A stretch of DNA of 64,000 nt from Schmidtea polychroa (Eukaryota): assembly GCA_044892525.1 (NCBI GenBank), contig CM097885.1, positions 22,136,001 through 22,200,000 on the forward strand. The letters are read 5' to 3'. The notes beneath the pieces are model-generated. The model made no database searches. It saw nothing but the letters and a program-made list of their open reading frames with translations, and had not been told where the DNA came from. This document shows, one piece after another, positions 55-58,616 of the stretch (positions within the stretch are counted from its first letter, which is position 1; each line of letters begins with the position of its first letter). A program made the position numbers and the translations under genes.

Positions 55-207
55 AGTTAGATATATTGTTGTTTTAATAATTAGGAATTTGCGGTTTTTG
101 TGAATTTATTAAAACTTGTTATTTATAAATTCTTTGATTAAATATATATTGTTAGTTTCAAGATTTTTGCTGCAAATTTAAAGATGGATCTAAAAATGGA
201 TTTAACT
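55..207 (+). repeat. 5' LTR of element A (AGTTA...TAACT)
   Basis: Direct repeat of 4595-4747; 5-bp terminal inverted repeat AGTTA/TAACT. Confidence 0.93.
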
Positions 208-1476
208 GGCGACCACGCCGAAAATCAAAATATCAACGCCATTTCGAAATCGACAAAATCGCTAATGGAATGCCTACCGAAATCATGCCAAGACATGCTC
301 ACACTGAACATCAGACGATATGATGGACGAGGTTTAAAAGAAGCCGAAGAATGGATCAGAGATATAGAAGAATGGTTGCTGAGAAATGGACAGCGATTGA
401 CAAGCACTTTCGATGTGTTATTAGTGGCAAAAGCAAAGACATTGTGGGAAAACGTCAGAGAAACAGAAACAACAGATGTAAAAGCCAAAGCGTGGTTCTT
501 AAATACGTTCACAATTACAAAATCTATAACTGACAAAATCAGAGAATTGGCAGCTATGGAACAGGAAAATGATGAAAGGTTTGCAGCTTTTGAGATACGG
601 CTAAGAAAAGCTTTAGCTGAAGCTGTAAATTCAGGACGATCAGAAGAAGATATTGTTCAAGACCTCATCGCAAATAAAGCACGCGATGCGAGACTGAGGG
701 AGATACTATTGACAAAACCAGAAACAAAAATTGAAGAAACGAGATCATTGGCGAAAATTTTTGAAAGTAACAAAATTGGAAACCATAAAACAGAATTTGT
801 TAAAGCAATCGGTCAAAGAACATACGCTAGCGTGACTGAGGGAGTGCAGATGAGAATTCGACAGAATACCCAAAATCCCATGCCTACATCACCACAAAGA
901 AGGCAATCAGAAGATCGATTTAGTCACCACAGATCAAGAAGAGACGAATATCCTATACGCGGACCAATACAATATGAAGGAAATAACCATGGTCGTCGAG
1001 AACAATCTCCAAGAGAACAATTCTTGAGAAATGCGAGAATCCCGAATAGCTCAGAAAGGAAGCTGCCGACAATATCCATGAAGAATATAGCAAGGAGGCT
1101 GTACAACGAAAGTATAGTAGTACCACAAGCATCGGTAGGTGATTGTTTTTGCTGTGGCAAAAGGGGAATTAGAAGGTATGAGTGTCCACTGGGAAATAAA
1201 TGCCTGATATGTGGCAAGGAAGGTCACGGTTTCCGAGATTGTTTTTCGTTACGGAAAGAGGTTCCACACCGATATCAAAGGATAGCGTGCATAGAAGAAG
1301 AAGATTCAAAATCTGAAAGAAGAGATTACACCGAGAACAGCCAGGATTTCAGAACTGCTCACAGCGACATGGAAGATAGATACAATGTCCCTGAAAAATA
1401 TACTATATTGAGAGAAGACCAAAAAAACAACAGCGACTCCATGGGTTTCATTTCGTCGGTGGAGTCAAGACAATAA
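184..1476 (+). CDS. gag: Gag of element A (430 aa)
   Basis: Capsid-like N-half; two knuckles CFCCGKRGIRRYEC (His lost) and CLICGKEGHGFRDC; candidate -1 slippery site A_AAA_AAC at 1422-1428 with the pol frame open from there. Confidence 0.9.
   Translation: MDLKMDLTGDHAENQNINAISKSTKSLMECLPKSCQDMLTLNIRRYDGRGLKEAEEWIRDIEEWLLRNGQRLTSTFDVLLVAKAKTLWENVRETETTDVKAKAWFLNTFTITKSITDKIRELAAMEQENDERFAAFEIRLRKALAEAVNSGRSEEDIVQDLIANKARDARLREILLTKPETKIEETRSLAKIFESNKIGNHKTEFVKAIGQRTYASVTEGVQMRIRQNTQNPMPTSPQRRQSEDRFSHHRSRRDEYPIRGPIQYEGNNHGRREQSPREQFLRNARIPNSSERKLPTISMKNIARRLYNESIVVPQASVGDCFCCGKRGIRRYECPLGNKCLICGKEGHGFRDCFSLRKEVPHRYQRIACIEEEDSKSERRDYTENSQDFRTAHSDMEDRYNVPEKYTILREDQKNNSDSMGFISSVESRQ
207..217 (+). 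promoter_or_regulatory. Primer binding site, probably tRNA-Arg; overlaps the last LTR base
   Basis: TGGCGACCACG is complementary to the 3' end (...CGUGGUCGCCA) of metazoan tRNA-Arg(UCG) as recalled. Confidence 0.75.
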
Positions 1477-4400
1477 ATTGTGAAATAAGAAATGAACGAC
1501 GAAGAGGCGAGGCAGAAGAAGAGATGTACCAGACGAAAGATGGAAGAAATTGGAGTAAAATAATGTTGAATAATGCCGAAACAGAGATGTTATGGGATTC
1601 TGGAGCATCAGTAACAGTCATGAGCAAGAGTTTGTGGGAGAAAATCGGCAAACCAGAACTTAAACGTAGTATGATATTATTGTGCGGAGTTTTTTCAACT
1701 GGAGGTGAAGAAGCAATGGGATACATGACTATACCGGCCACATGGAATCAGAAGACCAAAATAATCACAGTAGTAGTGGTAAAAGAGATCAAACCAGAAT
1801 TCATAGGGGGCATTGATACAATGAAAGAGTTTGGAGTAAAGTTAGTGAAAATCAGTAATATAGAAACGTCATTGATAAACAAAATTTACACTGATGAAGA
1901 AAGAATAAATAAAGCACTAGTGGCGATGGCAGGTGACAATAATAAAGATATTGAAGGAATGATCAGGGAATACGGCGGAATTTTTATGGCATCGAAATTC
2001 GATCTGGGATTTACAAACTTAGTTCGACATGAGATGCGGATAACAGGAGGCCCAATAATGCAACATCCTCGACGTCAACCAATGCACATGGAGAAAAGGA
2101 TTGAAGAACTGATAAAAGAGTTAATGAAAGCAAATGTTATTCGGTGTTGCAAGAGTCCTTGGAATGCCCCGTTAGTGATAGTAGGGAAGAAAGATGGATC
2201 TATCAGGATGTGTGTAGATTATCGTGGATTAAATTCCATAACAGAAAAAGAGTCATTTCCTATGCCTAACACCAAATTCTTACTAGACTGTCTCGCGAAT
2301 GCAAAAGTATTTTCGTCAATCGATTTAGGTCAGGCGTATTATCAAGTGGAGTTGGCTCCAGAAATTCAAGAAATGACTGCATTCAGTACAAGAGAAGGAC
2401 AATTTTGCTTCAATAGACTACCGTTTGGCTTAGCAACAGCTCCTGCGACATTCCAGAGACTGATGCACACAATGCTAGAAGGAATGCTATTCAAAGGAGT
2501 AGTAGTTTATCTAGATGATATCTTGGTATATGGTAAAAGTCAAAAAGACCACGATGAGCTATTAAGGGAAATATTCAGAAGAATTCAAATGGCAAGACTG
2601 AAGATAAATCCAGAAAAATGCAAATTCAATAAAACATAATTGTGTTTCCTTGGTCACACAATTAACGAGAAGGGTATCCAAACAAACAGGAAGAAAGTGG
2701 AAGAGATCGAGAAAGCAGAAGTACCAAAATGTTCAAAACAATTGAGATCGTTTCTCGGATTAACGAACTACTATAGAAGATTCATCGAAGACTATGCCAA
2801 AATCGCCGAACCATTATACGCTGCAACATCTGGATGCGATAAAGATATAAATTGGACTAAAGAATGCAATAAGAGCTTCCAAACTCTGAAGAGACGGTTG
2901 TGCAAAGCACCTATCCTTGATTTTCCAAGAGAAGATAGGACTTTTATCTTAGACACAGACGCTAGTTTCGGAGCCATTGGTGCAGTTTTGAGTCAAATTA
3001 CAGAAGATGGAGAAGAATCTGTCAAAGCTTATGGCTCGAGACATATGTCATCACATGAAAAAGGATACTGTGTAACCAGGAAAGAACTGCTCGCCGTACA
3101 CGAATATGTCATGCATTTTAGAGAATATCTGTACGGAAAAAAATTCATAATTCGCACCGACCACAAGGCATTGGTTTTCATGAACACTACAAAAACGCCA
3201 ATCAGTCCGCAATTCCAAACATGATTAGCTAACCTGTCGGAATATGATTTTGAACTAAAATATCGGAAAGGCGAAGAACACTCAAATGCAGATGGACTAT
3301 CAAGATTAAAAAGTATGGTTTGCACCCAGTGTCAAACAAGACATGAAGAAGCTAAGGAAGGAAAATCAAAGATTAGATATATATATATACTATCCAAAGA
3401 ACAGAAGCTATGGAAAAAGTATGGGAACAACAACAAAAGGACATTCGGTTTTGAGAGCTGCGAGAGATATTGGAAAATGGATGTACACGGGAGAAAAAAA
3501 ATTGTTTTCCTTTTAACGAAAAAAACATACAAATTGATGGAGGATTAATAACAGTAGAAAAGAACAAAAATATCTTAATGTTAGTCCCAGAAACATTTGC
3601 AGGCCGGTTAACAACAACGCTACATGAAGAACTATGTCACATTGGAGATAAGAAATTATTTCATTATATGGAAAAGATATTTTATTGGCCGAAAATGCAA
3701 GAAACAATCCAACTCTGTTTACAATGTTGCGAGATCTGCGCTAAGAGAAAGATCGATCAGACAAGAACCAAGGAAACATTTATTCCTAGATATAGCTCTG
3801 AATTCCTAGAACAGATTGTTATAGATGTGGCTTACATGGAAATAAACGCCAAAAAAAAATATATGGTAGTAATGGTGGACCGTTTTAGCAAACTGATTTC
3901 TTTAACTGCAATCACAAAGCAAGACGAAGGGACCATTTTCAAAACAATACTTAATAGTTGGATCTATCGATTTGGAAAACCGAAGAGTATTTTAACAGAT
4001 AGAGAGCGAAATTTCGAAGGGAATTTCCTAAGACAGAAGCTACAGAAACTTGGAATCAAACAGGAATTCAGCTCACCTTACCTGCACCAATCAAATGGTT
4101 TAGCCGAAAGAGCCATATGAACAATAAGAGATCTTATTACAGCAACATTGGCAGGCGGATGTGAAGACAGAAACTGGCACGAACTTCTACCCAAAATAGA
4201 GTTCACTATAAATAGCAGTCGACAAAGTACTACAGGCTTATCACCATTTGAGATAATTTATGGACGGAGTGTTAACCTACACTCTAACCTGAAACAAGCC
4301 GAGATATCAAGAAGCGAAAGAATCGAAGACGCGAGATTTAACTCGAGTAAAGCCGCAGACACTATGAGAGCTATGGATAAGACAAAGAGGGGCACTCGTG

Positions 4401-4585
4401 TTTTTGAGGTGGGGGAGGAGGTACTCGTACGTAAAGAGCCGCAGAACAGGCACAAGGATGGTATGCAATACGATGGCCCATATAAAATCGCCAGATTTCT
4501 ATCACCTCATCGAGTCGAACTACATTCACAAGAAGGAACGAAAGAAAGAAGAATCGAGTGGCTGAAGAAGTGGAAAAAGTCTTAA
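1422..4585 (+). pseudogene. pol: Pol of element A (PR-RT-RNaseH-IN), disrupted
   Basis: PR LWDSGA; RT YLDD; RH LDTDAS...TDHKAL; IN HHCC, D..D..E and GPY; in-frame stops at 2637, 3222 and 4118 and frameshift(s) near 3375-3470. Confidence 0.93.
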
Positions 4586-4594
4586 GAAGGGGAG

Positions 4595-4747
4595 AGTTAG
4601 ATATCTTGTTGTTTTAATAATTAGGAATTTGCGGTTTTTGTGAATTAATTAAAACTTGTTATTTATAAATTCTTTGATTAAATATATATTATTAGTTTCA
4701 AGATTTTTGCTGCAAATTTAAAGATGGATCTAAAGATGGATTTAACT
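4595..4747 (+). repeat. 3' LTR of element A
   Basis: Follows the PPT directly; followed by TSD TTTAT. Confidence 0.93.
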
Positions 4748-13746: not shown

Positions 13747-14362
13747 ATATAGACAGCCACCTATGACACCAATTTTTAGAAACAAACATTCAAGTTTTTC
13801 AAAGCCATAAAATCATGATAATACAAAAATACTATGCTAATCTAAGTCAATTATTCCATGTTAATTCAAAATCTCTACAATAATTGCAAATTTTAAAACA
13901 CTTCAAACCATCTTGAAATCGCAATACACTTACATTCAAACAAATAATGTCATTTTTACTCTATATTAACTTCACGCACATTTTGTGAGGCCAAATTAAC
14001 TTGAGCTGAAATTTGGCAAGTAGATTTGTTATCGAGAACACTGCATGCTATCAACATTTCAGATCGATCTGATCACGGAAAGTTGGTTAATTTAAAAAAT
14101 ATTGATATGTAAAATCTAATATTATTTCCTTGTTTCAATATAAATTCTTAATTTTTCATTAGTGTTGGATTAAAGAGATAACGTAATTATATCTAAAATA
14201 TATTATATAAATTTGAACATTATGGCCATGTAGGTCTTAAGGTGTTAATTAGTGTTGGGACATTAATTAATTATTTTAAAACAAATTTAAAAAAGAACAA
14301 GTTAATTTGTTTAAATATTGTGTTTGTTAAATAAATAAATGTTTTGAATTTTTTTTGTAACT

Positions 14363-15271
14363 ATGAGTCTTACAAATGGTGTCAGAAACTCCGAAGTTGA
14401 CCATGTCTCGGTCAAAATTCCGGCCATTTTTCAAAATCAAAGTCTATGGTTCAAGCAAGTGGAGGCCAGCTTCAAGATATCCAGAATTACAGAAGAGACC
14501 ACAAAGTATTTTCATTTAATTTCAAATCTCCCAACAACGTTGCTAACAAAGTACGAACACTTACTGGACTCAGAAACCGAACTTCCATACACCACTCTGA
14601 AGGAAGCAATCTTAGCTGGTTTTGAACTATCAAGGACAATATCACTAACTGACCTGATGAGAGACGACTGCCTGGGAGATCGATCTCCATCAGAAGCGCT
14701 TCAACACATTACAGGACAAATACAAAGAATAGACACATCCATGGACCCATTCAACAGTCCTATATCTCGGGAATTATTCATGCGACTACTACCAAGATCT
14801 GTTCAAGACATCCTATTATCGATGCCATCGACGGACCTTCGGAAATTAGCGATCACAGCAGACAGAATAATGATATCAAAGCGTCAATCAGTGAAGGCAA
14901 TTGAACACGAAGATTGCAATAATCAAGAAGTAGGAGACAAGACGAGAACAATCATGGAACTGCAGGAAGAAATAAATGCAATACGACAACAATTGAACAA
15001 TAAAAACACCGGTAAGTTATGTTTTTATCATAGTAAATTTGGGCATAGGGCGATGAAATGTCAACCGCCATGTGAATGGAATGCAAATCAGAACGACAAC
15101 TATCAATCGAGGAAGTACAACAGAGAGAAATATCAAAATTTCGAACCGTCAAACATATCGTCAAGGAACAACAACAACAATTTCAACAAAAACAGCAACT
15201 TCAACAAAAACGGCAACTTCAACAGCAACAACCACAGAGAGAACCAGGGAAACGAGAGAAGGTTTCATTGA
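14363..15271 (+). CDS. gag: Gag of element B (302 aa)
   Basis: VKIP...LWFKQVEASF N-terminus and the CHCC motif CFYHSKFGHRAMKCQPPC typical of CsRn1-clade Gag. Confidence 0.9.
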   Translation: MSLTNGVRNSEVDHVSVKIPAIFQNQSLWFKQVEASFKISRITEETTKYFHLISNLPTTLLTKYEHLLDSETELPYTTLKEAILAGFELSRTISLTDLMRDDCLGDRSPSEALQHITGQIQRIDTSMDPFNSPISRELFMRLLPRSVQDILLSMPSTDLRKLAITADRIMISKRQSVKAIEHEDCNNQEVGDKTRTIMELQEEINAIRQQLNNKNTGKLCFYHSKFGHRAMKCQPPCEWNANQNDNYQSRKYNREKYQNFEPSNISSRNNNNNFNKNSNFNKNGNFNSNNHRENQGNERRFH

Positions 15272-18228
15272 ACCCGAACAGTGAAACCTACAAAATCATA
15301 TCTTCTTTCTCGGGACAAAACAACTCACAAATATTCGAAATACCAGCAATCATAAATGGAGAACAAATTGACTTTCTCATAGATACAGGCGCTGATCTCA
15401 GCATCCTTCCCGCAAACCGTTTCAAGCCTGATAGAAATGGAGAACATCGATCTTTAGTATCCGCCAACAATTCATCAATCACATACCACGGGCAGAAAAC
15501 GATTGAATTTACTATTGAAGGATTCAGAACTAAATTTATATGGTCTTTCGCTATAGCCGGCATATCTCGTCCAATTCTAGGTGCAGACTTCCTGGCCCAT
15601 CACAAAATCGATGTTAGTTGTCATTCCAGATCAATATGTTGCCCTAGCAGTAACGAAAGAACAGAAGCGCGGAGAAGCCAATGTGCCAAGATCTGTGCTA
15701 CAATCAACAAAGAAAACACATTAACCACGAAACTACAAATTATCACCAATGGTTCCCCTGTAGCTCAAAGACAAAGACCACTTTTTGGAGAAAAATTAGT
15801 TGCAACAAAGAAAGAGTTTGACAGACTCTTAAATGAAGGTGTGATTCGGCCAAGCAAGAGTGACTGGGCATCTCCATTAGTAGTGGTTAAGAAGCCGGAT
15901 GGATCATGGCGGCCTTGTGGAGACTACAGAATGTTAAATGAAATAACCCAGCCTGACAGATATCCACTTCCGAGAATTCAAGATTTACTGAACAAGATAA
16001 ACAACCCTCATGTATTCACTAAATTAGATTTGGAAAAGGCATATCATCAAATTCCGATTTGTGACGGAGACATTTCAAAGACAGCAGTCATAACACCTTT
16101 TGGATTGTTCGAATATACGAAGATGCCTTTTGGACTTCGAAACGCATCTCAAACGTTTCAGAGACACATGGACAACGTACTCCGAGAACACCAGGAGCAT
16201 TCCTTATCCTATATTGATGATGTTCTGATATTCTCCAAGACTGAAGCAGAGCATAAAGAACACGTGGCAAGGGTGATGGCCAGTCTTCAAGCCGCTGGTC
16301 TCACAATGAACCAGAGCAAATGCGAATTCCAAACCGAAAAGGTAAACTTTTTGGGTTTTGAATTAACAAAACAAGGAATAAAACCCTCTGAAGAACGCAC
16401 GTTGGCAATTAGCAATTTAAAGAAGCCAACTAACAGTCAAGATTTACGACGTTTTATTGGTGGCATCGGCTATTATCACTGGCTAATTCCTAGGCTGTCG
16501 GATACACTGAGTCCACTGCATGACTTGTTACAAGAGTCGGTCAATAAAAAGGAAGATCTCTTATGGCAAGACTGCCATACACACGCTTTCATGAGTGCCA
16601 AAAATTCGGTACGTGAAATCAGCAACGTTTCATATCCTAACCCGTCCAAGCCATTCCTACTATGCACTGACGCATCTTCTAAAGCAATTGGAGCAAGTCT
16701 AAGTCAAATCAACGAAGAAAATAAATCATTTCCAATCGCTTTCTTTTCGAGGAAATTAAATCTAACCGAACAGAAGTATTCCACCTTTGACAGGGAGTTA
16801 CTGGCAATATTCTTATCTATAAAACATTTTAAGCATTTTTTAGACGGTTCTCATTTCACAGTCATGACGGACCACAAACCTTTACTACGAGCTAGACATA
16901 TGAAAGATCCATCGCCAAGGCAATGGCGAATAATCGAATACCTTGATCAATTTGATTTTACCATCGAATTCATCAAAGGGGAAGATAATGTAGTCGCCGA
17001 TCTCTTGTCCAGACCATGCAGTAATCAAAACCTACAAGTATCAACGGTGGAAATTAATTTCGTCGAATTCACGAAAGAAAGGTTAAAAGAAGAACAAAGG
17101 AAAGATCAGACCTTATCTACACTGAAAAATGCAAGTCTCCAGTTATGTAGTACTACGGATGACATTCTCATTGACAATTCTACGGGGGAAACCAGAGTAG
17201 TACTGCCAAAAATATTCCGACATCAAGAATTTCTAAGAATTCATAACATATCGCATCCAGCATCCAAACCAACGATAGAACTGATCAAGGCGAGATATGT
17301 GTGGCCTCAGATGAAAAGCGAGATCAGAGAGTGGTGTAGACAATGTCAAAGATGTCAAAGTGCAAAAATAGCAAGACACACACATGCTCCTTTGGGCACT
17401 ATAGAAACCAAAGGAAGGTTCATTACAGTCCATCTAGATATAGTGGGTCCCCTTCCGAGCGTCGATAACAAGAGATACATCATGACAATGATAGACCGAG
17501 GAACGTCATGGGTTGAAGCAATTCCTATATATGATATCACAGCAGATATGATCATAAGAACATTTGAAAGAGAGTGGATCAGTCGCTTTGGTGTTCCAGA
17601 AATTGTCATAACAGATCAAGGAACACAATTTGAATCAGAAAAATTCTCCAATTTCTGCAAGGTAATGGGAATCGAAAGGAGGCGAACAACAGCCTATCAC
17701 CCTCAATCCAATGGGAAGATAGAAAGATGGCACAGAGCCCTGAAAAACTCAATAAGAGCCGCATCAGAAGACTCCTCCAAGATGTGGGCTCATGATCTCC
17801 CCAAAATTCTACTCAGTCTAAGAAACTGCACGAAGTCCAATGGGTCTCCATCAGCAGCGCAACTCACATTCGGTTGTCGAGCTAGATTACCAGGAGATTT
17901 TGTCATTAGTGAACCAACATTAACCGATATCGAAGAGAAGTTGACATCGATTCAAGAGGAAATCGACTCACAACTAAATAACAAACAAACAAGCCAACCA
18001 AAAGAACATAGTTTTGTAAGCAAACTATTAGTTCACTGCCAAAGAGTGTGGCTTCGATCTGAATTTAGGAAATCGTTAGAAGATCCGTACACGGGACCAT
18101 ACGACGTCATAGAAAGATCCGATGACAGTAAAACGGTAAAAATCAAAATCGGAGACCAAGTAAAAAATGTTAGCATCGACCGTCTCAAGCCATGGATTGG
18201 AACGGACGAATTTGCTCCGCAATCTTAA
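15247..18228 (+). CDS. pol: Pol of element B, expressed via -1 frameshift at G_GGA_AAC (15247-15253)
   Basis: FLIDTGAD protease, YIDD RT, TDAS..TDHKPL RNase H, HHCC plus DDE integrase, GPY; pol is in the -1 frame relative to gag. Confidence 0.93.
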   Translation, partial: GKREKVSLNPNSETYKIISSFSGQNNSQIFEIPAIINGEQIDFLIDTGADLSILPANRFKPDRNGEHRSLVSANNSSITYHGQKTIEFTIEGFRTKFIWSFAIAGISRPILGADFLAHHKIDVSCHSRSICCPSSNERTEARRSQCAKICATINKENTLTTKLQIITNGSPVAQRQRPLFGEKLVATKKEFDRLLNEGVIRPSKSDWASPLVVVKKPDGSWRPCGDYRMLNEITQPDRYPLPRIQDLLNKINNPHVFTKLDLEKAYHQIPICDGDISKTAVITPFGLFEYTKMPFGLRNASQTFQRHMDNVLREHQEHSLSYIDDVLIFSKTEAEHKEHVARVMASLQAAGLTMNQSKCEFQTEKVNFLGFELTKQGIKPSEERTLAISNLKKPTNSQDLRRFIGGIGYYHWLIPRLSDTLSPLHDLLQESVNKKEDLLWQDCHTHAFMSAKNSVREISNVSYPNPSKPFLLCTDASSKAIGASLSQINEENKSFPIAFFSRKLNLTEQKYSTFDRELLAIFLSIKHFKHFLDGSHFTVMTDHKPLLRARHMKDPSPRQWRIIEYLDQFDFTIEFIKGEDNVVADLLSRPCSNQNLQVSTVEINFVEFTKERLKEEQRKDQTLSTLKNASLQLCSTTDDILIDNSTGETRVVLPKIFRHQEFLRIHNISHPASKPTIELIKARYVWPQMKSEIREWCRQCQRCQSAKIARHTHAPLGTIETKGRFITVHLDIVGPLPSVDNKRYIMTMIDRGTSWVEAIPIYDITADMIIRTFEREWISRFGVPEIVITDQGTQFESEKFSNFCKVMGIERRRTTAYHPQSNGKIERWHRALKNSIRAASEDSSKMWAHDLPKILLSLRNCTKSNGSPSAAQLTFGCRARLPGDFVISEPTLTDIEEKLTSIQEEIDSQLNNKQTSQPKEHSFVSKLLVHCQRVWLRSEFRKSLEDPYTGPYDVIERSDDSKTVKIKIGDQVKNVSIDRLKPWIGTDEFAPQS

Positions 18229-18648
18229 GGGGGAGTTGTGTTGGGACATTAATTAATTATTTTAAAACAAATTTAAAAAAGAACAAGTTAATTTGTTTAA
18301 ATATTGTGTTTGTTAAATAAATAAATGTTTTGAATTTTTTTTGTAACTATGAGTCTTACAATTAGTATGAAAAGTTTTAGTTTTGAGTGAAATATAGAGT
18401 TTCATAGATCATGTTTTTATGGTTGATTTTTTGTTATAATTCAGACATTTTGTCGTATCTATCTTTCAGTGCCTGCTTTATCTGAAATGTGTTTTTGTAC
18501 TAATAAAACATTAACATAGTAATGAAAAATATTTAAAAATTAATCAATTATGCTAACTGTGAAATGGGGTACCGTTATTATTGGCTGCATAGGGCTTCAT
18601 ATTGCATGTGAAAGGCTCTGTACTTGGTACTTTTCAATTACCCACCTG

Positions 18649-18979
18649 GGTGGTCAGACAAGGGCGCACAAGTCAAATACTCACAAGTGAAATGCGCCCA
18701 AGATATATCTTCTCAGTGTCAGATGCGTACAAAAGATTAAAAATATGGATTTACAGTAAATAGTTTTATATTAAAATTGTATGCATTTATAATAATAATT
18801 AAATAATAAATATGTACAAAATAAATTTTTATTTATTGCATATATTGTCACATTAATTAAATATAAAATAGTTGAAAAATTCTAAAAATTGACAGACCGT
18901 CTATCTTGTTTTAGCGCATTTGTCATCGTGCGTACCTGTCACTTTGATGTTATGTCTTGTGCGCACTTACCATGTAACC
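18649..18979. mobile_element. MULE-like MITE
   Basis: Imperfect TIRs (GG..CAAGGGCGCACAAG / CTTGTGCGCACTT..CC); degenerate 9-bp TSD ACCCACCTG / ATCCACTTG. Confidence 0.6.
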
Positions 18980-19728
18980 ATCCACTTGGGTTGAAAAATT
19001 GTCAATGCTTTTATAATTGATCCTTTAAGAGGTTTGCATTCTGCTATTATTAGTTTTAGCTTCGTTCAAATTACTATTTTACTTCACAAGATAAAACATA
19101 AGTTGATAAATTAAAAAATTAAAAAATTAATTATATTAAATAATGAAGAAATACAAATAATACGGTTTTAAAATATTTATGATGTTGTACCAAGACTGAC
19201 AATATTTAGAATGGTTTCAACATCATGGCAAAATTTTCACATGTAATCAACAAGAATTTGAATTTAAAATATGAGAGCAAACACGAAATATCACCAAGAT
19301 ACCAAAAATTAACAATAAGGGAATAGAAATATATATAAAATTCAAACCTAGCAACAAGTTGTATAAAATATCAAAACATACGAAAAACAAGAAATTGATT
19401 ATATTACAAATGTGAGGTTTTAAATACTCAATTTATGTCACTTATAATTAAATAAAAATAATATTGATTAAAAAATTTATTGATTCAGATATATACTTTA
19501 AACATTGATTTACCTTCACCGAGCAGATTCACTCTGATAAATGCTTTAAATTTAGGTGTATGTTTTTTTAAGGATGCTTAAATAATCGTTAAAATATAAA
19601 TTTATATTAATTAATTTAAATAAAAAAGAAATTTAAGTGTTTTAGGAATAAAAATTAAAGTACAGTATTAAGATTGGTATTTTTTTTAAAAGTTAATAAT
19701 TTTTTTAAATAAAACCTTTTAAAACTTC

Positions 19729-22700
19729 TGTTGGCGTATGTGGGGAGAAAAGAAAACTTATCACCAGACCACACATCCCGTTCATTTGACTCAGATCCTT
19801 CCCCATCATACTCCAAGTGACCTTACAGATATTCCCTCATTTGAGCCCGTGGAGGTCTTACACGTTGGTGATGCTCACATGGGTTGGAGTTAGTTAACAG
19901 GTGAGCCCCTGCCTTAGGACTGCTATTAACCTCCTCACGGTTCGGGTTCCAAGGTGCCATAGAAGGTCTTACCCTTACACTTACGCACAACTCGGTTCGA
20001 CCCTGGTCCAAGGGGACGACCTTTATCCGATGACTTTCACTTCGATTCAGCAATCAAACCAAACTATGCACTCAACAATCTCGTAAATAACTCAATAAAT
20101 GTCAAGAAAAATTTTTTTTATTAATTCCGCTACGTACATTGAATACACCCAAAAAAAATGTATATACACCAGTGTCTTGTTAGATGATGAGGGTAAGCCC
20201 ATCACTACATTTACCCTAGACAAATACTACAGGACAGGGCCCAAAAAATATAGAGTAAATGTGTACGCCGAAGAGCGCAGATAGATAAATATTCCAACAA
20301 ACAACCCAATTTCAAGCAAATCAATTCAACCCAAAGACAACCCAGCAATCTGAAAACTGACTAAATCGTCGAGCAAACTATGCATATTCTATCTTATCAA
20401 CAATTGTGTAAATATAATTGACTATTCTATCTTATTAACAATTGTGACAATCCATGTATATTTTATCTTATTTATATGTATATTTTATCTTATTTTCCGT
20501 CTGAATATTTTTATCTTATTTTCCGTTTGAATATTTATGTAGAATGTTAATATTTTATCGGGTGTATGTATTTAATAGATTTTATTAGTTAACATCTTAA
20601 TTATATACAAGGGAAAAATATTTTAATAATTTTAATTTGATATTTCAAACTAATAACAATAAATTTCAAAATTCAATTTTTAATTGTAAACTTCAATTAA
20701 TTTTATATTTCAAACGAATTGTAAAGGAAGAATTTTTTAGAACAGCTGGTTTAGAACAGCTGAGAAATTTTGACAAAAAACAATAACACTTTAAATAAAA
20801 TAATTAATTTTAAAACTAGGAAATAATAATCAATTAAATTTTAAGTATGTAAATTAACAACAGCTGCCCGTAAAAATAGTATAAATAGCGACAAAAAATT
20901 AGTTTTAGTCGCCCAAAAAATAGCGCAAAGATTTTTTATTCGAAGGTAAATCCTGAGGATAATTCAATCATTTGAATCAGCACAAAACGATTCACAAATA
21001 GTAAAAGCTTACGAAGACACAACACGCATATACAACAAATAACAATAAACATACTTTCTTTTGCACGCATTTCAGTTGGAGAATTTAACAAACGAGTATC
21101 GATTTTTCAGAATTGTAATTGGATTATATTTGGTAAATTTTACTTTCAATAAACCTTTATATACGTCTTTATTTGTTTTGTTATATATATAAGAACCAGT
21201 AAGTTGAGTGTTCCCGATTAACGAGACCTCAACAGTCTAATGAACAACTAAAATGCACAAATGAATTGTTAGTAGGCAAGGATCGCAGTTAGGCCTGTCA
21301 GGACGAATTAAGCTGGTCACCGACGTTATGTCTGATCATTGAAAAATTTCCCCTTCCGCTAACATTTCGTCTATGTCTACGGGTAACCGGCGATCCGCAA
21401 GATACTGGATTCCATCAGCCGGAACCACTCTAAATATTTCTTGGTTTGGGATTGAATGGGACTCGGATATTTCCTTGATGGTGGATTGGGCCACCGATAA
21501 CGAGGCTTCTAGTGCTGCTATGGTGTTTCGGCGCTTTTTATTTTTCTCAGCGCGTGTCGGCCGCTTACGTTTTCGATTTGGCGCTGTAGTTTCAACAGTT
21601 GGCTGTATCCGAGGAGGCTGAAGAGTTGGAGCCAAGATGGGGTTCGATGGACCCGTTGTCGTGGGCCTAGGACTCGAGAGGACTGGAGCGAAGATGGGGG
21701 ACAATTGCGGGTTGTGTCCCTTGCAGCGGGTTGTTGATGGAACCTCGGAAACCTGATGATGAATCGGGAACACATTTGTCCCGTCTTGAATTGGGTATTC
21801 TCGAACCCTCTTCGAGATCTCGACGTCTGTGTAGATTTTATGCAGGGCCTCTGATTGGGCCTTTATCGTGAGCCTCTGGCACCTACTTTCCTCCAGGAGA
21901 CTGTCGCGACAGTGCTCCAATCTCGAGATTTTCTGACGCTCCTCCTTCATTTGTGGACGGGAGAACCACGTGCCCTCGTATAAGTCAATACGTTTCTTTA
22001 AGGCCCCGATATAGGCGTGGAGTTTATTAATGTCTTCATTTTTGTCCGAACAGGAGAAACATGGACGAAGATCTTTTCCAGATTTAATTGGTGCAGTCAT
22101 CTAAATTTAAAGAAGTTTTTCGATCATGGTTAAAGGCAATCATTGGTGTATCGTTTACAGAGATGTCAGGTGTTTGGTGCAGCATCCTCAGGCGTTTCCC
22201 TCGGTGATCCTCAGCGGATCTCTGGTCACTCGCAAACGTTCATACCCCTTCACTCTCAAGCATGCCCATTCAGTCACTCCAATTCATGCTAATTAAGATA
22301 AAACGGGGATTGTTAACGATGTATTCACTATATTCCCAACATACAGGGTATTTTAGTTTTACCAATTATTATTTAATCCACTCCTCACTTCGGTAAGCGT
22401 ATATTTTTACATTTACAAACTCCTTATTGTTGTAAACCATCAGCTGGGCTAAGGTCATTTGATATTATGACCGATTACGCGATTGTTCATGTTATACTAC
22501 GGGAAACGAATAAATTCCCCTTGATGTCCTCAACCTCGTGGTGCAGAGAAATAGATATATTTAGGAAAATTATAAGTCTTAATTAATTTTAGCAGACAAT
22601 TGTAGAATTTATTGACTTCGCGACGTAGATATTGTCATGGAAAATCTCACCGTTCTGTGCTGTCGTCACTCTATCCCCTGTCCTGTGCGTGCAAAATGGC

Positions 22701-24995
22701 GGTTTATGAATTTCTATTAAGATGCGATGTTGCCGGTGTTCATCATCATTAGTCATGCCTTGCTGCGACTCACTGTTAAATAATGAAGAAAATTTTATCG
22801 TCTAGATTGTTATGACACCATCTCGATCTAATACACTACACTTTACTACTACAGCGATATCGACCTGCATACTACACTAGATCGGGTAGACTCGTCGGTG
22901 TGTATCGCTGCGTTCATCAGGCTTTGGGTGTAGTCTTAATACCAGATTCTGTTGGACGATAAAGATTCAGTTTTGCTTGGACTTGTAGAAAACGATTTGT
23001 CAACTTTTCGGAATTATCTATCACTCTATCAGTTGGGATTTTAATTCCTTGAGTACATCTCTTATGATTAGTGTTTGCTCGGGATAACTGCTGTCAACCT
23101 TGTCTGTGTGGTGTCGTAGTTTCTTATCCGTCGACTGCAGCCAATTCCTAATAGAACAGAAACGAAAGATAATTTCTCGACTCTCGTCGACGGCAGTTTT
23201 ACTCAATACTATAGCGAGTATTTGTATTAATTATCTGAGAATGTTTATGTTTTATCTAGATCGACGGTTGAATAATGATAGTGGCCTGTCGAACCTCGAT
23301 TTCTATGTCCACTCAGACTTTACAGATAGACGACGCTAGGGATTTATGCGCTAACGACTTTCGATACGAGCTATCAGACAGATCCCGAAAAAATACCGGT
23401 AATTATGGGAAATTGTTGGACATTCTCTCTAAGTATGGTCATTCGAGCACTCCTCCCAATTACGTTAATAGGCAAGCCATGCGCAAAAAATTCACTCCGA
23501 GTTATATGGATCCTCATGAAGTCGAAAAACAAGATACAAATGTCTAAATCTCCTGACTCGTTCTCATTTTTGGAATTTACATTATCTTTCCATCTAATCG
23601 AAATCTTGGTGGACTGCATGAAAAACGAAGATACTTTATGAATGATCGCGCTCGGTGAAAGGAATCTCACTCCACAATCGGATATTCAACCTGCTGAGTC
23701 TCCTCACCCCTCATGACATACCCAAGAAGGCATTCATTTCTGCCGCCGTTCTTGCACCGTCATGAGGGACCATTCGACTTGTTCTCATGAAAGCAATAAT
23801 TCGTGCACAAATTATGACAATAAAATAGTAAATAATGAGCAAATAAATCAATCAAAATCTTACCCGGCGACCCTAGCATTTGGACTCCAAGTATGATGTC
23901 ATCTTTTCCCTACAATCACACATTTGTCATGACCTGGCGAACATCTCATACAACCATTATCATTTTCTCCAAGTATCAATTGTCTTTCGACATCTTCTGG
24001 ATGCATAAAATGACAAACTCCTCGTGGTATCTCTCCTCACTGTGGTATAACTCCTGCTTGTCCACATCATACTTGGGGCTCCCAGATGGTACAGTCGCCG
24101 GCACCATGAAGGAAAAAGCTATTTTCATTTAAATAAATTTATTGCAAGAAATGAGTTTGTTTTTATTTTCAACCATTAACTAAATCAAACCAATAAACAT
24201 AAATAAATCAACATACTTCAAGCTTTGAAAACTGGATTAAATTGAACTTAGAACTTGTCTTGAATAAATTTGTCGTTAGTCGCTAAGTAATCCTCCCTAG
24301 ATTTAGTTTTGAAATCTCTGAGTTAGTTCACTGTGGTTAAAGGTTCCGTAATCTGTAGAGTAGTTCGAATGAATGAATTTTTCCCTGTAGAGTATTTTGA
24401 AAAGTGGTACATAATGAATGAATTTTTACCTGTAGAGTATTTTGAAAAGTGGTACTCTACTAATTTTTCGCGTTTCTTATATACTATTTTTCGTCCAATC
24501 AGGACACGACTTGTTTGTAATTTCGTTATTTATTATTATTTTTATGTTTTTATTATAATATATTAGATTTTAATAACTTAACTTATTTCTTATTATTATT
24601 TTATTTATTTTCTTATTTTATTATTTCTTTCTCCTATTTTTCCTGCGGATTTATTGTTACTTTATTGTAGTATGATTTTTTGTTTTAATTAGACTTAAAG
24701 ATGGTTTTATTTTTATTTATTTCTTTAATTTCTCGCTTTTTTACTTATTCTATTTCTACTTTATCCGCTGTGTGTCGTAAATCATTTCCTTTTTGTTTTA
24801 TTTCCACATCTAAGGGGTTTATTGGGTTTTATTTATTTTGGTTGCTTATTCCTATTCTTTTATTGGTATTTTATTGTTTCTTCCTACTTACTACTGAGAT
24901 TTGATGGTATTTTATTTTTTATCTTATTTCATTTATTCTTCGAGGTTCGCTTTTCTATTTGATCCAGTTTTTCCACTTCAAATTTTAGCCCAACA
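19729..24995 (-). mobile_element. 5267-bp TG..CA unit, probable giant solo LTR with coding cargo
   Basis: TGTTGG...CCAACA termini; 4-bp TSD CTTC at 19725-19728 and 24996-24999; no gag/pol motifs and no internal LTR pair; minus-strand TATA-like TATATAAG ~24476-24483 with a nearby CCAAT. Confidence 0.72.
21336..22100 (-). CDS. Orphan 254-aa protein within the 5.3-kb unit
   Basis: GC-elevated uninterrupted ORF; CxxC, predicted coiled coil, Pro-rich linker, basic NRKRKRPTRAEKNKKRR segment; ATG directly preceded by a TTTAG acceptor-like site. Confidence 0.6.
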   Translation of the reverse strand: MTAPIKSGKDLRPCFSCSDKNEDINKLHAYIGALKKRIDLYEGTWFSRPQMKEERQKISRLEHCRDSLLEESRCQRLTIKAQSEALHKIYTDVEISKRVREYPIQDGTNVFPIHHQVSEVPSTTRCKGHNPQLSPIFAPVLSSPRPTTTGPSNPILAPTLQPPRIQPTVETTAPNRKRKRPTRAEKNKKRRNTIAALEASLSVAQSTIKEISESHSIPNQEIFRVVPADGIQYLADRRLPVDIDEMLAEGEIFQ

Positions 24996-25739
24996 CTTCA
25001 CGTATTTTTACATTATATTTAATCAAATTTAAACCATTGAAAATCCATGAAATGGATATAAAAACGAAAACCAGCAAGAATTTAAACCCTAACCTAATAA
25101 AAAGGAAAAAGCAAAACATATCTCGACACTGTCAGAGATAAAATGGGAACAGTCTGGAAAATGCGGGAGAAAGAGAAATGAGAAACATTAGATTATTTAG
25201 AGACATAAAGTAATGTATAATTTCCTGGTTCAGAAATCATTTATCAGTATCTATTTATCAAGTTAAAAATAATAAACATTAAAAAATTGAAAATTAAATT
25301 AGATAGATAAAAATAATAAAAATATAATAAATAATCGAATAAAAAAATAAAAATAACAATTAAATAAATAAATAAAATAATAAATTTAAATAAATAAATA
25401 AAGTACGTAATTGAAATAAAATAATTAATTAATAAAAAGAAATAAATGAAAAAATTAAATTTAAATTTAAAAAATGATTAAATTAGTTTATTTTTGATAA
25501 TTTTAACATAATTTTAATGACATTGTGATGACCTTGAAAGGTTATTGTGGTAAAAGTGCACGGTGTCGTTACTACTTACCACTACATTTTTATAACTTTT
25601 GTGATATAATTATAAAAAATAATTTTTTTATTAATTTAAGTATTTAAAATCTATGTAACATAATATGATCTCCGTTTCTTAACTAAAACTTATTATTAGA
25701 AAAAATTTCTTCTTTAAAAGTGAAATTTAATTATCACTC

Positions 25740-27439: not shown

Positions 27440-29400
27440 AAATGGTTGTTGACGGTCCGGCACCGGTCAATGAGATCTATATAGCCGGTCCGCACCATGG
27501 TCCAAGAAACTGGTTAAAAAAATTTGGCCTAATATAAAATTGGCCATGCTCAAATTCATACAAATTTCATGATATATTTATGATTATATTAAAAGGAAAA
27601 AGATAGCTGTAATAAAGGAAATGTCTGAAGTTGAAGGAATTTGATTTAGCTTCTGATAATATTTCTTTCCTGATTAATTCTTCCATAATTTTAACTTTGA
27701 TTTTATCTATTTGTTAGTAATCTGCATTTTACCCGTTCGTGCCATTTCCGACGCAATCCAAGATACAATGACTTGTTTAGCCATCCGTCACCCATTGAGG
27801 GACCAAAGTTAGTAATGTGTCGTGTGTGGGTGAGTGCACCTCTGTACACTATTATCATCGAATATTCCAATGGGTTCGCAGGCTGGAGATAGAAGGCCTG
27901 TGCCCGACTTCAGTTAGACACCTTCACATTATGCCCACTGGCGCAACTCCTGAGGCCGGTGTCGGTCCGATGGAATTCAACGCATTCGAACTGGAAACAC
28001 AAATAACTACATTTTAGTTTATTATGGTATCACACTCGGTTATCACAATAATTTAGTGGTAGGTTACAGGTAAGCATATATTTTACCTTGTCGTGATGTT
28101 TCCAGCATAATCCAGAATACAAAGGATGTGTTTTACCGCTTGATACCCATTGAGTTACCGAGTGGGGATTGCTCGTAAAACGCGAGCGCACTACTTGTAT
28201 TATAATTGTCGGGCACTCGTTTGGGTTCACGGACTACCGATAGAAGGCTTATGTCCGATTTCTCTTGGTCCTTTTGTTAGATCATTTTTCCAAACCCATT
28301 AAACATTTATCATACTCGCCAGACATTTATAATTCATTCGCTTTCTCATTTCTTTGGGACTGAACCACGTGCCTTCCAGCTCTCAGCACCGCTTCTTAAA
28401 TTTCAGGAGTCTCCGTCTTAAATATTCCACCTGGGCTTGAGTTTCCTTTCAATCGGTCCGCAAGTTCTTCAATAACTTCAGCACTGAATTATAAGATTAT
28501 TCATTTAAGTTATATAGTATTTGAAGTGGTTACACCATTTTCAAATCCGCCAAGAATTTATTTGGTGGAATGCCCATAGACGTGGATATATGTTGAGGGA
28601 ACCCTTTCCATACCTACCTTATTATTATTTGATGTTATCACAAAGTTACTAAGGTATGTAGTCTGCACCGTAATTACTTTATTTAGCTAGCTAGAGTCGA
28701 AATTATTCCTAGGCCTTTTAGGGTGAAGAAGATGAAATCGAAACAAAATACAAAACAATATAAATGGATAAATGACAAAGATATATATTAAGCAAATAAA
28801 AATTAGTCACAAGACTATGATCACAGGTCATACATTGTATGGATAACAAATTTGGAGTTAGTGAGTCAACAAATTAAACGAATCAAAAGAAATGAATATA
28901 GTTATTACGACGCCTTTCGTCAGATACGGTGCGACTGGCTGGGGTGATTGGACAATTGAGGAGTTTGTATGGGCCCGCTCCTGCTCCATCTGGATACGTG
29001 TTAGTCAGTCCGTGTCGGTTCCTACGATGTCTACCTTGTCGGGATCCCCGAACTTTTCACTACTTATCTGGAACTCGATTCACCGTAGCCTGGCCACCGC
29101 AACTCCGATGTCCATGATTGCCAGTATACAGGCCTCATGTAGTAGATTGTTTTGGGCCTCTTGTTTGACCCAGACCGGGGCTCCTAGCTGGCGTCCCAGC
29201 CTGACGACCTGGCCAAATTCTGCTACTGGTGCCATATCCACCGGGTCCAGAGTCTGGTTACGGAGTTTGACTTGTCCATCCCCACGATACTCTGCACTTC
29301 TTTTCCTTGTTTGACCATTTGGGGGCGATGTGTTTTAAGACGAGCTAGTTGTGTATAGGTCGATCTGATCTGGTTGGTTGTGCAACCTTAATGGTGAAGT
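27440..29400 (-). mobile_element. Degenerate GC-elevated coding relic, possibly retroelement integrase tail plus accessory ORF
   Basis: Broken minus-strand frames, e.g. NQFLGPW near 27495 (GPY/F-like) and a ~140-codon frame at 28890-29320 with two stops. Confidence 0.3.
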
Positions 29401-30559: not shown

Positions 30560-31015
30560 TATTTATCATTTGCTTAACGCCAAGTTTATAAGTCAACAAA
30601 ATCACGACTCCAAATTCTTCGATAATTCTCTTACAACCTCTCCAAATTGACTCAATACGAAGCAATGGCCTAACGATAGCCCGATAATAGATTCGACGTG
30701 TGGCAATAATCTTTTAACTTTCAGCATATTGATGTTTGACTTGAGTTGATTTTGAGAAATTCACATAATCTGACCAATTGGGAAAACTCTTTAAATCCAA
30801 ACCCATTGTCTCAATACCATACATAAAATAAACAATCGTCCGATGAGAAATTCGACGTACAGCAATTGTCATTTGACTTTCAGCATATTGACGTTTGACT
30901 TGAGTTTATTTTAAGAAATTCACATAATCTGACCAAATAGAAGAACTCTTTAAGTCCAAACCCAGTTTATCTACTTCATAATCATAATCTTGAGACATTC
31001 TTTCTTTGAAACTTT
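30560..31015 (-). pseudogene. CSTF3: CstF-77 / suppressor of forked (CSTF3)-like fragment with internal duplication
   Basis: SFKERMSQDYDY..DKLGLDLKSSSIWSDYVNFLK..YAESQ..AVRRI...P.LRIESIWR resembles CSTF3 SYKEKMAQAYDFALDKIG..IWVDYINFLK..YAENQRITAVRRVY..PMINIEQLWR; two in-frame stops. Confidence 0.8.
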
Positions 31016-33441: not shown

Positions 33442-54707
<21,266 letters not shown>

Positions 54708-56889: not shown

Positions 56890-58616
56890 TAGGGCAACCC
56901 ATTGCAACTTTTTGCAACTTTTGCAACTTTTGACTTTTTTTGGAAAATTTTTGATTTAAAAATTATATATTCATATATAGATTTTTTGATTTAAAAATTA
57001 TGTATTCATATATAGATTTTTAATTTTTTTTACCATGAAAAATAATTCGAACATTAGAAAATACTGTGCATTATACAATAAGGAGTTTGTAATGGCCCCA
57101 AACGATCAGTTGTACTGCAATCTGTGTTCTAAAACAGTCGACCACAAAAGAAAATATACGATTGAAAAACACCGAAGAAGTCTTAAGCATTCCACCTTAT
57201 TATCCCAATTAAATAGCGAAGAACCCGCTAAACAAGACTTTATAAGCGTGAAGAAGAGGGAATTTCTTGAAATATTAACAACCGCGTTAATATCAATCGA
57301 CCTGCCGCTTCACAAACTACGAAATAATAGTCTCAAAAAGCTCTTTAATTTTATGACCTATCCACTTCCATCTGAATCGAGTATGCGAAGATACATTATT
57401 CAAAATACATACCCAGCAGTTTTGAATAAATTGAAAGATTATGTCAAAAACAAAGAAATATTTCTTGTTGTGGATGAAACTTCAATCAACTTAGAAAAAT
57501 ACGCCATGGTATTAATAGGAATAATCGAATCTCCTAAAGTTGTTTACGCGGCCAATTTAATACACCTGAAAGCTCCGATAACCCACCAAATTGTAGTCAA
57601 CATTATAAATGAAACATTTGATATTCTTGAAATTGAAAGTAAACAATTTTTGCTGTTGTTAAGCGACGATGCTAGCTACATGCGAAAAGCAGCCGATCAT
57701 TTAAAAATCGTGCATCCAAACCTTTTCTCAATTAAATGTATTGCGCACCTAATTCATAATTGTGCAATGCGGTTAAAAATTCACTACAAAGATGCTGATA
57801 ATATGATTTCTGCGATTAAGTCAATAACGGCAAAAAATAAAGAAAATAAAAGAATTCTTTCTAAGGCAGGCAATATTCCAGATGTTATTGTAACACGATG
57901 GTCAAGTTGGCTTGGCGCTGCATTAATTTATTCTAAAATACTGCCAGAAATAAAATTACATTTCAAGGAAATAACTCAAAAGGGAATATTGATCGAAAAT
58001 GCGAAAACGGCTATTTTTAAAGAAACGATAACAAAAGAGTTGGAAGAAATATTTAATTGTTACAGGGGGTTAGTTGTATTGGCTGATGAGCTTGAAGATT
58101 CAAAACATTCAATTGAAAGTGCATTTAAAAGAATAAATGAATTCGACTTCAAAGACGACCCTTGTAATTTGAAATCTTATATTCAGGAAAGAATGTTTAA
58201 AAACGACTTAAACAACATTTTGGAGTTGTCTAACGACAAAATTTCGCCAGCAACATATTCTCAGTTAAAAAATTGCCAGCCAACGTCAATTGACGTGGAA
58301 AGGAGCTTTTCAATGCTGAAAAGAATGTTAAGAGAGGACAGGAATTATAACGGAAATAATATTCCGTATTACTTTATCTGCTATTTCAATTCAGTTGATG
58401 AAAAAAACAATTTGATCCGAAACATTAGACCAAAGAATTATCAAGAATTTTTGCTTGTTTTCCCGTTTACAAAGGAATTCTACTTTAATGATTTTATATT
58501 TATATTTTGTAGTAAATAATAAAAAATTTAATATTATTTTATAGTCAGCTTTTATTGCAACTTTTGCAACTTTAAGTTTTTTTGCAATTCTTTTTTGCAA
58601 TTTTTGGGTTGCCCTA
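56890..58616 (+). mobile_element. Compact, potentially autonomous hAT (1727 bp)
   Basis: Perfect TIR TAGGGCAACCCA; perfect 8-bp TSD GTAATCAC; subterminal TTGCAAC repeats at both ends. Confidence 0.95.
57035..58519 (+). CDS. hAT-family transposase (CGGBP1/DUF659-like), 494 aa
   Basis: N-terminal CxxC..H..H zinc finger, VVDET, LSDDASYM, CIAH, TRW, DVERSFS. Confidence 0.9.
   Translation: MKNNSNIRKYCALYNKEFVMAPNDQLYCNLCSKTVDHKRKYTIEKHRRSLKHSTLLSQLNSEEPAKQDFISVKKREFLEILTTALISIDLPLHKLRNNSLKKLFNFMTYPLPSESSMRRYIIQNTYPAVLNKLKDYVKNKEIFLVVDETSINLEKYAMVLIGIIESPKVVYAANLIHLKAPITHQIVVNIINETFDILEIESKQFLLLLSDDASYMRKAADHLKIVHPNLFSIKCIAHLIHNCAMRLKIHYKDADNMISAIKSITAKNKENKRILSKAGNIPDVIVTRWSSWLGAALIYSKILPEIKLHFKEITQKGILIENAKTAIFKETITKELEEIFNCYRGLVVLADELEDSKHSIESAFKRINEFDFKDDPCNLKSYIQERMFKNDLNNILELSNDKISPATYSQLKNCQPTSIDVERSFSMLKRMLREDRNYNGNNIPYYFICYFNSVDEKNNLIRNIRPKNYQEFLLVFPFTKEFYFNDFIFIFCSK

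Follow-up and report, generated by a model that had tools for sequence, protein, structure and literature searches.

A 5.3-kb insertion in Schmidtea polychroa carries one gene of an unnamed, dispersed protein family and is probably the solo long terminal repeat that a giant Gypsy-type element left behind

We analysed a 64,000-bp stretch of Schmidtea polychroa DNA (assembly GCA_044892525.1, contig CM097885.1, positions 22,136,001 to 22,200,000; referred to here as the window, with positions counted from its first base), which is AT-rich and full of transposon remains. At 19729..24995 the window contains a 5,267-bp unit that is almost certainly a real insertion and that we take to be a likely solo long terminal repeat (LTR), oriented right-to-left (minus strand) as the gene that it carries. 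Read on the plus strand, the unit starts with TGTTGG (19729..19734) and ends with CCAACA (24990..24995). The inverted repeat of the two ends is perfect over 6 bp only, with patchy matching to about 30 bp (16 of 30 positions overall), and the unit is flanked by two copies of CTTC, at 19725..19728 and 24996..24999, which form a 4-bp target-site duplication. Both the termini and the duplication are thus present as given in a preliminary description of this DNA. Inside the unit lies an intact open reading frame (ORF) of 254 codons (21336..22100, minus strand), which directly follows an acceptor-like TTTAG. Its length was reached by 0 of 500 dinucleotide shuffles, and it is the only demonstrably coding frame in the unit.

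The end motif alone does not rise above chance, because the window holds 122 pairs of the same kind, in which 6-bp inverted repeats beginning with TG are flanked by a duplication of 4 bp and lie no more than 10 kb apart. The unit ends become convincing because breaks in base composition coincide with both of them. The log-likelihood ratio for such a break is 38.2 at the left end, where GC content rises from 17% to 50%, and 33.4 at the right end, where pyrimidine content falls from 70% to 40%; these values belong to the top 0.4% and 0.8% of sampled window positions, respectively. The pair 19729/24995 is the only one of the 122 with strong breaks at both ends, the next-best pair reaching only 14.2 at its weaker end. 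It is improbable that the ends enclose a fragment of an ORF-bearing repeat, or a host gene exon, by coincidence. Such a coincidence would draw on the 122 motif pairs, on the fact that the ends were picked after the sequence had been inspected, and on the position of the best-fitting breaks, which lie at 19725 and 25021 and hence 4 and 26 bp off the unit ends, the right-hand one being the more distant. Against it, multiplying the 122 pairs by the two tail fractions (0.004 and 0.008) gives roughly 0.004, the needed 10-mer has an expected count of 0.006 in 10 kb, and the relatives of the encoded protein, described below, are found next to 14 different housekeeping domains, which would not be so for a fixed host gene.

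About 4 kb of GC-elevated, coding-like blocks had been attributed to the unit beforehand, of which one demonstrable gene (22100-21336) is left. The longest ORF in 22101-24200 has 103 codons, a length matched by 206 of 500 shuffles. When eight stretches were examined with three coding-signal tests each, the plus-strand stop count over 22101-24120 was low (p=0.03, uncorrected) and a 3-base periodicity appeared at 23863-24120 (p=0.01, uncorrected), both of which are weak signals. A codon model trained on the transposon ORFs of the window weakly favours the frame of the known ORF and finds no clear frame elsewhere. The stretch 22101..23783, with about 40% GC and no demonstrable coding frame, might belong to a long leader, be an intron, or represent a second gene that has decayed; an exon-like, GC-raised block at 23864..24118 (minus strand) holds an ATG-started frame of 44 codons with no family match. 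By-eye candidates for CCCH finger, hAT and piggyBac motifs in the middle stretch were dropped, as they were without Pfam support, and a search of the Protein Data Bank (PDB) with two plus-strand read-through frames of this stretch returned nothing (best E 0.74).

No reverse transcriptase, integrase, transposase or other Pfam family was found in the 254-residue product, in eight shorter ORFs or in 12 frames of 19729-24200, taken from either strand and read through their stops, in line with the earlier statement that the unit is free of reverse transcriptase and integrase. The 12 read-through frames likewise contain no host-gene, ubiquitin, Gag, pol or env family. This bears on the idea that the unit is a solo LTR of the BEL/Pao type holding captured pieces of host mRNA, of which the GC-raised middle could be a mosaic. 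We consider this reading improbable, since no frame matches a host-gene, ubiquitin or Gag family and the ORF represents a self-standing family with its own start and not a host fragment.

A full HMMER scan of 1.84 billion representative proteins with the 254-residue sequence identified nine relatives (E 2e-11 to 2e-4, 31-43% identity), and a profile search, in which the top 8,000 candidates of up to 2,000 residues were scored, added seven more, giving 16 relatives with about 30-44% identity. All 16 are unnamed, and each of the first nine is a single UniParc record; their accession range is one that we take to be that of worm gene models. The gene had been called an orphan, which applies only in the sense that it has no named family. 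A word-index protein search with the single ORF retained 0 of 358 candidates, and an exact look-up found 0 of five window proteins in the collection. With the family profile or the ORF, no match was obtained in PHROGs (best E 0.021) or among the PDB sequences (best E 0.12). The similarity spans a helical domain (query residues 15-151), a basic motif and a C-terminal motif, the latter in four of the 16 relatives; since it continues through to the C-terminal motif, the ORF looks whole and conserved.

Fourteen of the 16 relatives combine the shared domain with an unrelated housekeeping domain, a different one each time. The partners in the first set are the glycine cleavage P protein, a neurotransmitter symporter, CRAL-TRIO, an ABC ATPase, subtilase, actin and ribosomal protein L21. 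Housekeeping domains scored above the Pfam cut-off in seven of the first nine models and were given by precomputed Pfam assignments in all seven of the later ones; a Gag, reverse transcriptase or integrase domain is listed for none of the 16. The shared domain is N-terminal in some models and C-terminal in others, and three models enter it through the same four residues ahead of its methionine, as a shared splice acceptor would give. Fusion to so many different domains is the signature of a dispersed repeat exon; gene predictors yield such models where the intact exon of a repeat lies in or near many genes. In a tree of 17 domains, nine close copies on different host genes form a supported clade (95/97), next to other, looser groups. 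On the basis of these comparisons, we take this to be a real, so far unnamed protein family that is carried by a dispersed repeat. A broken short match to the same family lies outside the unit at 28341..28442 (minus strand; profile E 2.5e-4 within the window). The GC-raised block that contains it extends from about 27.7 to 29.4 kb. An acceptor-like AG precedes the match by about 40 bp, and no matching termini were found around it; it is probably an older relative of the unit, 3 kb away.

AlphaFold2 predictions of the protein from a 10-row alignment reached a mean predicted local distance difference test (pLDDT) score of 68 and a predicted template modelling score of 0.33. Helices are predicted at residues 18-42, 48-89, 92-101 and 183-205, with a Pro/Ser/Thr linker at low confidence, and the helices 18-42 and 48-89 have pLDDT values of 83-95 in most blocks. 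Modelling of residues 15-120 in two copies gave a parallel coiled-coil dimer with a score of 0.48, the best of three controls scoring 0.00; contact agreement between runs was at least 81% and pLDDT at least 75. Among solved homodimers, 21 of 30 microbial and 17 of 29 eukaryotic ones attained the mark used for such dimers, as against none of 23 and none of 30 single chains, respectively. The modelling thus supports pairing of the 254-residue protein as a coiled-coil homodimer. In the long helix, 23 of whose 42 positions touch in the model, six of the seven invariant residues fall at the predicted interface, which is suggestive but not significant. Foldseek searches at E 0.001 against PDB and viral libraries gave no match, the best VIA-align hit (Z 5.9) corresponds to generic long helices, and the best entries in an Atlas comparison (0.86 and 0.81) are both unnamed.

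Following the linker, the query contains a basic motif with nine Lys/Arg in 14 residues (176-189), and in eight of the 16 relatives there is an Arg run ending in ERR. The family profile matches the basic region of the BZR1 DNA-binding domain at E 0.18 only, and there is a sub-threshold resemblance to Rev, considered below. As the motif weakly resembles both, RNA and DNA binding are indistinguishable on this basis. A leucine-rich export-signal pattern is found at query residues 194-203, but such a pattern occurs somewhere in 69% of 1,000 shuffles, and it is missing in nine of the 16 relatives (260 residues scanned).

We propose, with moderate confidence and from features of the sequence, that a giant Gypsy-type element left the unit behind as a solo LTR, which carries that element's own regulatory gene. 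The anatomy is that of a solo LTR: the TG...CA ends form an inverted repeat of 6 bp, a duplication of 4 bp flanks them, and no enzymes are encoded inside. No direct repeat was found between the two ends, and neither a TGG primer-site start nor a purine tract was found beside either end. The size of 5,267 bp points to giant Gypsy elements. The gene-bearing solo LTR of the preliminary description therefore holds in part, as the discrete insertion, the LTR-like ends and the dispersed-exon gene fit it, but it bears one gene and not several.

Two other classes of explanation have to be weighed against this anatomy. Firstly, the unit could be a deleted or recombined LTR element whose ends derive from the 5' and 3' LTRs and whose ORF is a trapped internal accessory gene. 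Extra ORFs are mostly internal, from pol to the 3' LTR, and some of their products are nuclear (PMC7264820); the 1.7-kb middle with its weak plus-strand stop depletion (92 against 107±6) is unexplained, and an R+U5 region of 4.7 kb, which the candidate promoter described below would imply, is odd. Against this, the ends share no direct repeat, no primer site or purine tract is recognised beside them, and no trace of gag, pol or env is found in the 12 read-through frames. We regard it as unlikely. Secondly, and a shade less likely still, the unit could belong to another class of element with TG...CA ends and a 4-bp duplication and be complete in itself, moving over its 5.3 kb as a non-autonomous or passenger element, such as a derivative of a Ginger-like DNA transposon. 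In favour of this reading, the data show a discrete, dispersed, gene-bearing unit and not its mode of movement. On the other hand, the perfect terminal inverted repeat has only 6 bp, where cut-and-paste elements usually need more, and the unit lacks the terminal inverted repeats of tens of base pairs and the integrase-like transposase of Ginger-like transposons; no transposase is present inside the unit, although a non-autonomous copy would also be without one.

Returning to the solo-LTR reading, the signals for a transcript would all be located within the unit. On the minus strand, an inverted CCAAT box (ATTGG, 24499-24495) and a TATATAA (24483-24477) form a candidate promoter at 24477..24499, about 500-510 bp from the right end, as the preliminary description had stated. 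Since 18 CCAAT-then-TATA combinations occur in the window, we rate this promoter no higher than plausible. A 45-bp tandem duplication (two copies, 97%) lies just past the TATA at 24368..24455. Further along the minus strand are two candidate introns, one of 98 nt (24119..24216, GTATGT...AG, 81% AT) and one of 80 nt (23784..23863, GTAAGA...AG, 75% AT), which would border the exon-like block mentioned above. A candidate polyadenylation signal, AATAAA, is located at 21168..21173, about 160 nt past the ORF stop codon; it is one of nine on the minus strand in 19729-24500. The CCAAT-TATA and the AATAAA stand in the order expected for U3-R-U5, yet both kinds of motif are common. Between the candidate start site and the 254-codon ORF there are 54 ATGs, and hence the ORF would be translatable only after splicing or from a nearer promoter. 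The AT-rich stretch at 20454..20762 contains short tandem repeats (22-, 26- and 14-bp units), and the last 300 bp of the unit (19729..20028) are GC-rich (50%), abut a flank of 17% GC and have a U5-like position.

Based on these signals, we envisage the following course of events. A full element would have inserted by its own enzymes, duplicating CTTC, and recombination between its LTRs would then have deleted gag-pol and left one LTR. From the promoter near 24480, about 500 bp inside the right end, a leftward transcript would start. It would be spliced to the acceptor that immediately precedes the ATG at 22100 and would terminate near 21150, close to the AATAAA at 21173. With promoter, gene and end signal all inside the LTR, the gene would survive in each solo copy. 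In the full element, the signals of the 5' LTR would yield a short mRNA for the regulator, whereas the long genomic RNA would have to pass the end signal of the 5' LTR and exit the nucleus unspliced; the dimeric basic protein is a candidate controller of these steps, and its basic motif is predicted to serve both nuclear entry and nucleic-acid binding. By analogy with the accessory regulators of complex retroviruses, the protein is predicted to be a trans-acting regulator of its parent element. If the unit is an LTR, control at the RNA level (export of a very long genomic RNA, or its passage through the end signal in the 5' LTR) and some other role are equally possible, both tentatively, and transcriptional control is slightly more doubtful. 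The suggestion that such units spread an orphan gene without retroelement enzymes does not fit this scheme. A solo LTR arises when recombination removes the internal region after insertion of a full element and does not spread by itself; the unit would thus be a remnant of an insertion made by the full element's enzymes.

Several known systems resemble parts of this arrangement. The preliminary description gave LTRs of about 5 kb for the giant Gypsy elements Burro and Ogre. In planarians, giant Gypsy elements are known that have multi-kb LTRs and carry accessory ORFs, and Burro is described with an internal region of up to 25 kb, a total of over 30 kb and accessory ORFs; for Ogre, LTRs of 1.9-6.5 kb are given (PMC6431247). 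If it is an LTR, the unit shares with Burro/GYPSM1 the multi-kb LTR range, its 5,267 bp fitting the size implied by that source; further common points are the AT-rich, flatworm-like genome and the accessory ORFs known from such elements. The described cargo of Burro/GYPSM1, by contrast, lies in the internal polyprotein or in an upstream accessory ORF, and the available part of PMC6431247 mentions no in-LTR gene; nor was a sequence link from the unit to Burro obtained. That the parent element was Burro specifically is a tentative assignment, to which we give somewhat less than even weight. Plant Tat/Ogre elements (Grande gene23, RIRE2, Retand) have conserved extra ORFs without a database match, some of them with nuclear products, which have been proposed as element regulators (PMC7264820). 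They are similar to the unit in their long LTRs and in having extra ORFs without database matches; however, these ORFs are not part of the LTR, most of them being located from pol to the 3' LTR, and would therefore be lost in solo LTRs, and no sequence similarity to the unit was found. Among the papers listed in literature searches, which did not extend to the primary Burro papers or Repbase, none describes a gene that lies within a planarian LTR.

Protein coding tied to an LTR has precedents in vertebrate viruses. The superantigen (Sag) of mouse mammary tumour virus is encoded in U3, and HBZ of human T-cell leukaemia virus type 1 (HTLV-1), a basic/zipper regulator, comes from the antisense promoter of the 3' LTR. 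The antisense promoter of HTLV has been described (PMC7264820). These viruses differ from the unit in their much shorter LTRs and vertebrate hosts, and neither protein has a sequence or fold match to it. The retroviral Rev-like proteins (Rev, Rex and Rem) combine an arginine-rich motif with a coiled coil and control the nuclear exit of unspliced RNA in retroviruses (PMC5568270), and likeness to them extends to the small size of the protein, the arginine-rich motif in relatives (Lys/Arg-rich in the query), the predicted coiled coil and the likely spliced RNA. The difference is that there is no significant homology and that the ORF of the unit is apparently inside an LTR.

A number of observations weigh against the reading of the unit as a regulator-bearing LTR. 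The relatives come without DNA context and hence show a dispersed repeat, not an LTR, and the fusions in their gene models may be prediction artefacts. Among the relatives, which for the profile search come from the top 8,000 candidates of up to 2,000 residues, there is no case of the domain being linked to a Burro polyprotein (BIR, MATH or BCL2-like cargo with Gag or reverse transcriptase). The query itself is a long branch (3.61) in the 17-domain tree with a best identity of 38%, because of which its placement is unsure. The ERR run is missing from the query, and the Rev family (PF00424) is matched by one of 10 rows only, at 19.1 bits against a curated cut-off of 22. The dimer mark was reached by only one of seven eukaryotic homodimers without an older solved relative, these being small counts. 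U3 is usually the longest part of an LTR, and a start site 500 bp inside the unit would give an R+U5 of about 4.7 kb, an unusual layout. The target-site duplication of the intact Gypsy element nearby (14253-18358, see below) has 5 bp, not the 4 bp of the unit. No structured RNA element stands out, with only one of 62 windows having a z-score below -2.5, although a target could be located in the missing internal region, and no hairpin resembling the trans-activation response or Rev response elements was found near the candidate start site or the left end; the RNA folds of the 45-bp duplication (z 0.85) and of the GC-rich last 300 bp (z -0.48) are ordinary. Finally, no related DNA was found in metagenome and viral contigs, and neither a second or paired copy nor an empty site was seen.

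Solo LTRs are usually regarded as remnants without coding function. Should an LTR of 5 kb contain an entire conserved gene, the many solo copies of planarian-type genomes would be protein-coding cassettes. For public gene annotations, the 14 chimeric models among the 16 relatives would mean either contamination by a repeat exon or an exon that has truly been exonised, and a family without a Pfam, PHROG, PDB or fold match could offer a handle on the making and export of 30-kb retroelement RNAs. According to Lee et al. 2026 (cited in PMC13465017), planarian stem cells are supported by a Burro element, because of which a gene-bearing LTR would matter more. One might go further and speculate, though we think this unlikely, that a giant invertebrate retroelement lineage moved a complete regulatory gene, with promoter, introns, ORF and end signal, into its 5-kb LTR, that the gene encodes a dimeric, arginine-rich protein which acts on the very long RNA of the element in the manner of Rev or an anti-terminator, that solo LTRs act both as a source of this protein in trans and as a host-spliceable exon, and that a circuit in the style of complex retroviruses has thereby evolved independently in Gypsy.

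The surroundings of the unit contain several other elements. An intact-looking Gypsy element at 14253-18358 (plus strand) has LTRs of about 120 bp that start with TGTTGGG, a start that is thus used by LTRs in this genome, and a 5-bp duplication, ATTAG. It contains a gag-like frame of 307 codons with its ATG at the LTR end and an open pol frame of 1,050 codons with reverse transcriptase, RNase H and integrase by Pfam. That the unit could be the 3' LTR of this element was rejected, as the Gypsy has its own short LTRs and duplication. A second Gypsy-like element at 55-4747 (plus strand) has 153-bp LTRs (97% identical) that begin with AGTT and not TG; its gag-like frame begins inside the LTR, and its pol is broken into several frames. 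No Rfam match was obtained in 18400-24500 and no tRNA in 1-24500. Eight of the 16 sequencing runs listed (four studies) contain part of the stretch, with a best share of 0.51 and four shares of about 0.50 from one study; no RNA run is among those listed.

On the far side of the unit, remains of DNA transposons are located at 39769-41587 (minus strand), 38530-38793, 53718-54077 and 56990-58516 (all plus strand); they comprise hAT-like pieces (a weak DUF4371 match and a hAT dimerisation domain), a DDE_1 piece and an open DUF659-like frame of 509 codons. Host-like exons on the minus strand (44116-44451, 47347-47616, 38892-39116 and 30717-30905) hold a PH domain in two exons, a piece of an eIF3 subunit and a weak HAT/Suf repeat match, the last within a 160-bp local duplication (30672-30964). 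At 33445-34152 (minus strand) there is an open frame of 236 codons rich in Pro, Gln and Asn, with no Pfam match, which is possibly a terminal host exon, and a near-perfect palindrome of 132 bp, 92% self-complementary, occupies 43696-43827.

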